IMG/VR virus record: IMGVR_UViG_3300044769_000018 | Direction: 5' to 3' (one strand) | Length of the DNA stretch: 44,413 nucleotides | Origin: a virus | Shown here: piece by piece, positions 40,624-42,076 of the stretch | How positions within the stretch are numbered: the stretch's first letter is position 1 | Layout of the letters: every line of letters begins with the position of its first letter | Notes under the pieces: model-generated | Database searches by the model: none | Told to the model about the DNA's origin: nothing | Seen by the model: the letters and a program-made list of their open reading frames with translations, nothing else | Position numbers and translations under genes: made by a program

Positions 40624-41766
40624 TTATTCATCCTCAGGAAGCATCATCGCTCGGGAGCGCGTTCTGAAATCTTTCAAGCGAGATATCAAACCTTCATACG
40701 GCATACCGAGTCGAGCGGCTTTAGCTTTTAAGAAATCCTCCTGCTGTGTAGGAGTCATGTTCTTATATCTATCAGCCACTAACATTCGCGTACCCGATAC
40801 AGAATACATCTTCGGGTCGTTGAATTCAGGGAATGCTAAGAACAACTTCTGTGGCGTACTCGTATCGCCCGGCAGGTTGGGATTGATTGCTGCATCCGTA
40901 CCCTTATAACTTGCCGAACCCTTTGCCGTCTCCGCAGCGAGTCTTGCATTCGCTCGTGACGTTTCAGCAGAGAGTTTTGCCCCACCCGATGGAGTATCAA
41001 ACTGATGAATATCTCGCTCAACATCTTCCCTACGATTATCACGCTTCTCATCAACCGTGAAATCGCCATTTGGAATAACGGTCGGCAATACTTCAACCTG
41101 TCCGCCGCGAATACGACGAGCGACTTGTTTGCCATCAGGACCATCTTCAAACGTCCAGCCACGGTCCTTAGCTGCATCGATATCGAGCTGAATCTTCTGT
41201 CGTGCAAGCTGTAAAGTTTCGTCAGCACGACGGTCATCAACTGAACGAGAATACGCAGCCTCAGCATTGCGATGACGAGCATCAGCAATCTTGACATCGG
41301 CTTCGTAACGAGAACCTTTCTTCTGCCACTCGTTCTGAGCCTGCTGATACGGACGCTCGTTAAGATATTCACCGAGCTTTAACCCTCGGCCAACATCCCT
41401 CGATGTATACCCTTCAACACCAGCGGCTATTGAGTTGAACAATTTATTCCACTTACCGGGCTTGTAATCTTCCTGCTTGGGCTCAGACTTCATGTATTCA
41501 GCATACCGCTGCATCGGTGCGTAATCATATTCCGGTGCCTGCCGACGGCGCATCGCAACATCTTGCGGCAATGCACTCTGAATCGATGCACCTAATCCAG
41601 TAGTCGCACCTGTACCAAAGTCACCGAATCGATTAGACCAATCAGCTTGGCCAGTCTGACCAAATTGGCCAGCGGGTTGAGCTTGCTGAGGATTCAGAAA
41701 ATTCCACTGAGACGCTTTGCCACGTCCCCATACATCACCGCCGTAATCATAATCATCCCAGGCCAT
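40624..41766 (-). CDS. Internal-virion/ejection-type protein (380 aa)
   Basis: Track ORF. The N-terminus is Gly/Gln-rich, the middle is charged and helical, and the gene is coupled on both sides. Confidence 0.55.
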   Translation of the reverse strand: MAWDDYDYGGDVWGRGKASQWNFLNPQQAQPAGQFGQTGQADWSNRFGDFGTGATTGLGASIQSALPQDVAMRRRQAPEYDYAPMQRYAEYMKSEPKQEDYKPGKWNKLFNSIAAGVEGYTSRDVGRGLKLGEYLNERPYQQAQNEWQKKGSRYEADVKIADARHRNAEAAYSRSVDDRRADETLQLARQKIQLDIDAAKDRGWTFEDGPDGKQVARRIRGGQVEVLPTVIPNGDFTVDEKRDNRREDVERDIHQFDTPSGGAKLSAETSRANARLAAETAKGSASYKGTDAAINPNLPGDTSTPQKLFLAFPEFNDPKMYSVSGTRMLVADRYKNMTPTQQEDFLKAKAARLGMPYEGLISRLKDFRTRSRAMMLPEDE

Positions 41767-42076
41767 TGATAATCTCCCGTACCTTCTTATGCCTTTCGGC
41801 TTTCGTAAGGCTAGCTACATTGGGTAATTTAGCAACTTCGTTCCGGGCATGAATTCTATTAGCTAAGTCCTCAACCAATAGAATATCGTACACGCGCCCT
41901 TGATGATATCCCCAGTAATGTGTACCACCCGTATCAGGCGATGGTACCAATCTAAGTCCCATTGATTCGCAAAGCTCTCGATTCGCGATACATTCCTCAC
42001 CGAGATAATCCCAATCGGAATCACTACGATGCGTACCGTAGAACCGAGAGCCTACGAGATAGAACATAGTTACCAT
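41753..42076 (-). CDS. Minimal nucleotidyltransferase (Pol-beta superfamily, MNT-like), 107 aa
   Basis: LVGSRFYGTHRSDSDWDYL matches hG[GS]-x10-DhDh. The third acidic residue is a candidate in VYDILLVED. The ORF overlaps the upstream stop (ATGGTAA) and the downstream start by 14 nt. Confidence 0.6.
   Translation of the reverse strand: MVTMFYLVGSRFYGTHRSDSDWDYLGEECIANRELCESMGLRLVPSPDTGGTHYWGYHQGRVYDILLVEDLANRIHARNEVAKLPNVASLTKAERHKKVREIINGLG

Follow-up and report, generated by a model that had tools for sequence, protein, structure and literature searches.

A minimal Pol-beta-type nucleotidyltransferase gene in the late operon of a 44.4-kb phage genome, a candidate accessory effector

The 44,413-nucleotide (nt) viral genome IMGVR_UViG_3300044769_000018 of IMG/VR, here called the window, carries on its minus strand a gene for a 107-amino-acid (aa) protein with a nucleotidyltransferase (NTase) signature, embedded between genes for large presumed internal-virion proteins. 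The question raised by this locus is what such a protein would do in a phage late operon. The best-known minimal NTases are the antitoxins of HEPN/MNT, and no other predicted toxin-antitoxin module is as abundant in prokaryotes. An earlier note on this DNA had described the gene as a stand-alone minimal Pol-beta NTase, and this description was upheld by the predicted fold and by a triad that is intact in the protein's own clade. The favoured reading, which is held with middling confidence and draws on analogy with MntA, is that the protein would be an active Mg2+-dependent nucleoside monophosphate (NMP) transferase and an accessory effector, with a macromolecule of the host as its substrate.

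Gene, predicted fold and active-site residues

The gene and its key residues are located as follows.

41753..42076, minus strand: minimal Pol-beta-type nucleotidyltransferase gene (NTase), 107 aa, from the open reading frame listing, homologues, AlphaFold2 and Foldseek
42008..42052, minus strand: GS-X10-DxD motif with G9, S10, S20, D21 and D23, from the translation, family conservation and MntA spacing
41885..41887, minus strand: codon of D64 on the last core strand, putatively the third carboxylate that binds metal, from the translation and clade conservation

The translated protein begins with MVTMFYLVGSRFYGTHRSDSDWDYL; GSRFYGTHRSDSDWD is coded by 42008-42052 and RVYDILLVED by 41867-41896. 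In MntA, the residues G27/S28, S38, D39/D41 and D71 hold ATP and two Mg2+ ions (PMC7641770). Their counterparts in the phage protein are G9/S10, S20, D21/D23 and D64, and the spacing is exact. Both sequence features to which the earlier note had pointed were recovered: the Pol-beta signature is present as an exact GS-X10-DxD with MntA-type spacing, and the acidic strand downstream of it (VYDILLVED) contains D64, which is kept across the protein's own clade. Over the open frames of the whole window, a single occurrence of the motif pattern was counted, while about 0.2 were expected by chance. With this chance expectation the motif alone is weak evidence, so the case rests on conservation and fold.

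Homologues with 80, 68, 56 and 42% identity retain the motif. Among 131 family members, G9, S10, R11, D21 and D23 were invariant, S20 was found in 97% and W22 in 89% of the sequences. Position 64 was occupied by His in 44%, Asp in 41%, Gln in 14% and Glu in two sequences. Conservation of the acidic triad, on which the earlier proposal had leaned, was therefore partial: D64 is shared by all seven syntenic homologues and by every member of the short clade of this NTase, but the wider family mostly has His or Gln there.

A structure was predicted by AlphaFold2 using an alignment of 15 relatives as input, with a mean predicted local distance difference test score (pLDDT) of 93.8 and a predicted template modelling score of 0.84. 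The elements follow each other in the order strand, helix, strand, helix, short strand, beta-hairpin and two helices. In this model, GS stands at the N-terminus of a helix, DxD on the second strand and D64 on the second strand of the hairpin; LVG9S10 leads from strand 6-8 into helix 9-13, D21-W-D23-Y opens strand 22-27 and D64 lies on strand 61-68. All 50 listed Foldseek matches in the PDB were NTases of the Pol-beta superfamily (E from 4e-3, probability 0.9-1.0, query template modelling score 0.42-0.58), among them TUT7, poly(A) polymerases, GLD-2, Tailor, Cid1, CutA and archaeal CCA-adding enzymes. The structure prediction that the earlier note had proposed as a check thus returned the Pol-beta NTase fold, which on this modelling the protein almost certainly has; it would consist of the catalytic palm followed by two C-terminal helices. 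For the distant relative L012, modelled with a pLDDT of 85, mostly NTase matches were obtained, in addition to LinB, TM1012 and GrpB.

Searches with the NTase sequence against curated libraries gave a different outcome. No Pfam match was obtained, even at E<=10; PF01909 appeared only at E>=0.021, in five of 15 relatives. The NCBIfam model MntA_antitoxin (NF047752) scored 16.6 bits against a cut-off of 60, so that the assignment to the MNT family type made in the earlier note was not borne out by curated profiles. No PADLOC family (CD-NTase, AbiEii and others) matched at E<=10, which also leaves the search for known defence NTases, suggested in the same note, without a hit. PF10127 (RlaP) did not match the NTase either. 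The sole PHROG match was phrog_388 'nucleotidyltransferase' (E 1e-3), in which residues 4-26 align to positions 40-62 of a 351-position profile; it was matched by five of 46 relatives, with E down to 1e-5. In a profile search of PDB sequences, the MNT antitoxin 7ae2 came first, with E 0.094, and then 0.004 when a broader profile was used.

Distribution among related phages and in the wider family

Alignment of the upstream gene, coding for a 677-aa protein, gave related loci; a pattern search with the 380-aa protein coded downstream alone gave no loci. Nine related phages have the late-operon block, and in seven of the resulting ten (the 44.4-kb genome, L019, L022, L023, L037, L038 and L039) the NTase occupies the same slot, with an identity to the copy of the 44.4-kb genome of 68% down to about 40%. 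In L020, L021 and L024 the flanking genes are directly adjacent with no NTase between them. A sensitive family hidden Markov model (HMM) found none in these three loci nor in the whole records, which measure 37.2, 20.2 and 35.5 kb and are estimated to be 84, 46 and 80% complete, respectively.

In a tree of the upstream gene, L037, L038 and L039, all of them NTase-bearing, form the outgroup by midpoint rooting. L021, without NTase, is sister to L023, which has one and comes from the same metagenome (support 100/99), while L020 and L024, both without NTase, pair together (support 95/96). The simplest reading of this tree is that the NTase would be ancestral and would have been lost independently at least twice. 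A single gain was considered as an explanation of the patchy presence and rejected, the NTase-less phages standing at two separately supported positions. Because three of the ten related phages are without the gene and have its flanks adjacent, the NTase gene is, on this genome comparison, regarded as an old accessory gene dispensable for virion building. The earlier note had asked for such a neighbourhood survey and had counted absence from relatives against its proposal; the result, three phages without and seven with the gene, goes partly each way and fits an accessory role in interaction with the host.

Two observations were made on individual relatives. In L023 (6995-8769) the 677-aa homologue aligns in three pieces and three frames, which points to frameshift or assembly errors in the Gly-rich part. 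The early region of L038, a Logan contig of 47.7 kb, codes at 16615-16845 (minus strand) for a 76-aa protein with an Acb2_Tad1_hairpin Pfam match, likely a cyclic-nucleotide sponge; with this gene, the lineage therefore carries known counter-defence genes.

The wider family was sought at several scales. A HMMER search of 1.84 billion representatives gave 16 matches, of which three were unrelated; the long matches P0009, P0014 and P0017 were discarded as repeat proteins unrelated to NTases. A profile search of a 5.8-billion-protein collection yielded at least 138 clusters, and for none of the 138 is a Pfam domain precomputed or any name given beyond 'hypothetical protein'. The family is carried by 18 viral loci in IMG/VR, and six weak loci, mostly motif-only, were found among 185,579 prokaryote species represented by one genome each. 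In GenBank phages, no counterpart was found of the region, the NTase or a distant family member, either by near match or at protein level. The family is nearly confined to viruses and essentially phage-restricted.

Typical members are 130-170 aa long, with 21-34 residues ahead of GS, and sit among small early-type genes on the same strand with no conserved partner gene; most members of the family resemble early 'host-takeover' genes. The clade of this NTase differs in its length of 96-109 aa, with five to eight residues ahead of GS and always Asp at position 64. The 144-kb contig IMGVR_UViG_3300033149_003715 (L003) carries seven tandem paralogs of 137-149 aa each at 1651-6485, and two other multi-copy families of small genes adjoin this array. 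Tandem paralogs and small early-type surroundings suggest a style of evolution typical of an arms race.

Late operon and neighbouring genes

The 44.4-kb genome is complete, with terminal repeats. Its minus-strand structural module starts at the terminase and crosses the ends of the 44,413-nt stretch. The block under study runs through a 116-aa gene, a gene listed as 93 aa, the 677-aa gene, the NTase gene, the 380-aa gene and the 1518-aa gene to a terminator; the gene listed as 93 aa aligns to the C-terminal part of 134-135-aa genes in the relatives. The features around the NTase gene are the following.

42070..44103, minus strand: Gly-rich repeat protein, 677 aa, whose stop overlaps the NTase start (open reading frame listing)
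40624..41766, minus strand: 380-aa protein, starting 14 nt inside the NTase gene (open reading frame listing)
36065..40621, minus strand: 1518-aa terminal late protein, putatively internal-virion or polyvalent-type; largest gene and last of the operon
38735..39097, minus strand: ART-like stretch in the 1518-aa protein (PF18760 ART-PolyVal, sub-threshold)
36025..36056, minus strand: intrinsic-terminator-like hairpin, 14-pair stem followed by a T-run, right after the stop of the 1518-aa gene

At the 5' junction of the NTase gene, the upstream codons ...TAT GAA TGG TAA run over ATG GTA ACT ATG, which gives a 7-nt overlap, ATGGTAA. The true start may be the second Met at 42067, 2 nt past the upstream stop (104 aa), because most homologues have this Met as their first residue (MFYL, MLYL or MFHL). 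At the other end, the 380-aa gene starts with an ATG at 41766 and overlaps the NTase gene by its first 14 nt. The overlaps on both sides that the earlier note had read from the DNA are therefore present, and with either start the gene is coupled tightly to its neighbours. Its coupling within an operon was likewise confirmed, the gene being part of a single late operon closed by a strong terminator: no promoter- or terminator-like site above background was found between the operon genes, and the terminator hairpin is placed in the 55 bp that separate the primase gene from the late operon convergent with it. The operon converges on replication genes (DUF3987 primase and UDG-PolA). A recent foreign insertion of the NTase gene was rejected, as its GC content (0.46, and 0.42 at third codon positions) is like that of the neighbouring genes and the tree points to ancestral presence.

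The 677-aa protein is 60-78% identical in all ten related phages and ends in repeats rich in Tyr, Gly and Pro. Homologues of the 380-aa protein (354-712 aa) are found in all relatives, including those without NTase. For the 1518-aa protein, only eight relatives were detected in a large protein collection, none of them named. None of these three proteins has a significant PHROG, Pfam, PDB or GenBank-phage match; Pfam searches at permissive E with pieces of the NTase neighbours gave noise only, and a PDB sequence search with the 1518-aa protein gave nothing. When 50,697 GenBank phage records were searched by tblastn (E<=1e-3), no match was obtained for the major capsid protein (11162-12439, minus strand) or for the conserved C-terminus of the 1518-aa protein (36068-38419, minus strand). 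This phage lineage is without a sequenced isolate relative.

The ART-like stretch, which reads WYHGT...GSGVYLT, was matched by ART-PolyVal PF18760 with E 6.7e-4 and 20.9 bits, compared to a cut-off of 31.2, and more weakly by DUF3990 and PARP. It does not align in the 1518-aa homologues of L019, L020 or L023, and resembles an exchangeable cassette within an otherwise conserved carrier protein. Such cassettes have been described for virion-delivered polyvalent proteins (PMC5512222). A link between the presence of the NTase and the ART cassette was rejected, since the stretch is unaligned in other NTase-bearing phages. It is reasonable to regard the neighbours as putative ejection proteins by their position, their size and the sub-threshold ART-PolyVal cassette. 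This is as far as the earlier designation as internal-virion-type genes goes; homology to named ejection or internal-virion proteins was not found.

Possible function and known systems

From the gene, its motif, fold, family, synteny and patchy presence we infer catalysis, a kind of substrate and a role. A shortened NTase without the N-terminal segment would long have resided in one slot of the terminal late operon of phages of about 44 kb, and would be made late, by translational coupling with large presumed internal-virion proteins. Using a nucleoside triphosphate with Mg2+, probably ATP, it would put a nucleotide on a hydroxyl of a host macromolecule, with host defence or physiology being modulated as the outcome. 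By analogy with MntA, the likeliest target would be a protein such as a defence toxin, because the motif region is closest to MNT and because in such a small protein the active site would have to be completed by the substrate, as that of MntA is by HepT. Judged from the conserved residues, the protein is probably catalytically active.

Several points weigh against this view. Every curated NTase profile missed the protein or stayed well under its cut-off, and the Foldseek E-values are modest even at their best. That D64 faces D21 and D23 in the active site is presumed. As many as 58% of the wider family carry His or Gln at the third position, and one tandem paralog of L003 (4531-4965) has lost both GS and DxD, reading GEK... 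and SPRWDL, with the frame kept; because of these two observations, catalysis may not be the common function of the family. The nucleotide site of MntA is completed by residues of its partner HepT (PMC7641770), and the 44.4-kb genome codes for no such HepT-type partner. As the earlier note had claimed, there is no HEPN gene beside the NTase: no HEPN match was found among its neighbours, nor any HepT-like or HEPN match anywhere in the genome at E<=1 in a search with positive controls. Finally, a counter-defence protein would not readily be expected to be made late, except if it were packaged. Packaging and injection of the NTase would reconcile late expression with early action and are considered possible, though doubtful. 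The favoured reading has a precedent in minimal Pol-beta NTases that are predicted to be the protein-modifying cargo of proteins delivered by mobile elements together with the DNA (PMC5512222). The more specific scenario of an 'injected orphan antitoxin', which would enter with the DNA and at once AMPylate a host defence toxin such as a HEPN RNase, is considered quite unlikely.

Other explanations were weighed against the favoured one. The protein could be an RNA 3'-end nucleotidyltransferase that restores the ends of tRNA or rRNA after their cleavage or trimming by host defences, or that tails host RNAs for decay. The nearest solved folds are indeed RNA terminal transferases (TUT7, poly(A) polymerases, CCA-adding enzymes, Trf4 and Cid1), the weak PHROG match is to phrog_388, the basic residues K91 and R94 of the C-terminal helices are conserved in the clade, and jumbo phages are known to repair RNA with RlaP-type Pol-beta NTases (PMC7824862). 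RNA enzymes, however, need a second domain (PAP-associated, or head and neck) for RNA binding and base choice, which the 107-aa protein does not have; RlaP is paired with RNA ligases, and neither RtcB nor a Rnl2-type ligase (RNA_ligase PF09414) was found in the 44.4-kb genome. As the motif region is also nearer in sequence to the protein-modifying MNT, action on RNA is considered unlikely. A similarly low likelihood is given to a non-catalytic binder or pseudoenzyme that would act stoichiometrically, for example as a nucleotide sponge or by clamping a HEPN-type toxin of the host as a decoy antitoxin. The frequent His or Gln at the third position and the paralog that is still in frame after the loss of its motifs speak for such a protein, small size and paralog arrays are typical of phage inhibitor proteins, and MNT antitoxins are tightly bound to their toxins (PMC7641770). 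Binding alone, however, does not neutralise the toxin in the case of MntA (PMC7641770), and both the invariance of G9, S10, R11, D21 and D23 in 131 sequences and the retention of D64 throughout the clade, down to about 40% identity, argue for chemistry.

A role inside the phage has also to be considered, in which the NTase nucleotidylates a neighbouring late protein or helps in its assembly, for instance at the C-terminal tail of the 677-aa protein. The overlap of the gene with both neighbours and its constant slot in seven phages speak for such a role, as does the Tyr/Gly/Pro-rich end of the 677-aa protein, given that MntA modifies a Tyr (PMC7641770). Three relatives, however, keep these neighbours with no NTase in their sequences, one of them being sister to an NTase-bearing phage of its own metagenome, and the other family members are found in early-type clusters without such neighbours; an internal role is accordingly held to be improbable. 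That the gene is a chance open reading frame or a decayed remnant without function is barely conceivable. The chance expectation of about 0.2 for the motif pattern and the lack of any curated profile over threshold would allow it, but full-length homologues from 80% to about 40% identity keep frame, motifs and position, and the fold is predicted at very high confidence.

The family keeps a catalytic signature without a partner gene, a Pfam model or an annotation in at least 138 clusters. Presence and absence among siblings, paralog arrays in large phages and, in one lineage, a place in the operon of presumed injected proteins make it a good candidate for a new type of phage effector or counter-defence enzyme. 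If the reading as an injected antitoxin were true, the family would be a large unrecognised class of counter-defence, each member being tuned to a different host toxin; if it served for no more than housekeeping or binding, what is gained would be an annotation for 'hypothetical' phage genes. The counter-defence idea draws on genomic context. The family is of moderate interest, as candidate effectors that are small and easy to synthesise and test.

Among known systems, the MntA/MNT antitoxins (type VII HEPN-MNT; PF01909, NF047752; 7ae2) are alike in size (about 100-150 aa), in the minimal Pol-beta fold, in GS-X10-DxD with Ser before the first Asp and in a later third Asp, and 7ae2 is the best PDB sequence match. 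The phage NTase differs in staying under the family cut-offs, in lacking the N-terminal helix and a HEPN gene in the genome, in its position in the late operon of a lytic phage and in a third residue that varies across the phage family. The minimal NTases of polyvalent proteins in conjugative elements, compared here by description only, are likewise minimal (four strands, three helices), predicted to nucleotidylate proteins, and borne with ART and effector domains (PMC5512222). Those NTases are fused to ArdC-N in Firmicute conjugative elements, whereas here the NTase is a separate late-operon gene; minimal NTases were not found in phage-type polyvalent proteins, and solo versions occur in phages (PMC5512222).

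The best palm matches, including the beta-hairpin with the third Asp, are TUT7, poly(A) polymerase, GLD-2, Cid1 and archaeal CCA-adding enzymes, but these are multi-domain proteins of 300-800 aa with 14-25% identity to the phage NTase, which has the palm and two helices. RlaP (PF10127) and phrog_388 share a GSRxYG...SDxD-type motif; the match covers 23 residues of 351, and RlaP is about three times longer and paired with RNA ligases. By fold, small uncharacterised phage proteins were also found, with template modelling scores of 0.6-0.74 over the whole protein: A0A7S5UQC5 of Rhizobium phage RHph_TM34, Q0E5Y8 of LKA1 and proteins of the Rhizobium phages Palo and RHEph03. Proteins of this kind, NTase-like and with similar predicted folds, are thus present in podoviruses that have been isolated. 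None of them has a sequence relation detectable by the NTase family HMM. In Pseudomonas phage LKA1 (L034), ORF26 at 10985-11407 codes for a 140-aa hypothetical protein with GGS-X10-DLD and lies in the replication region between helicase and ligase genes. It is probably the BFVD structural match Q0E5Y8; with it, an isolated phiKMV-type phage would carry an unannotated mini-NTase-like protein that has no sequence relation to the family described here. What is new, outside the curated MNT families, is a phage-restricted family without a Pfam model that has a well-known fold in a new genomic setting.

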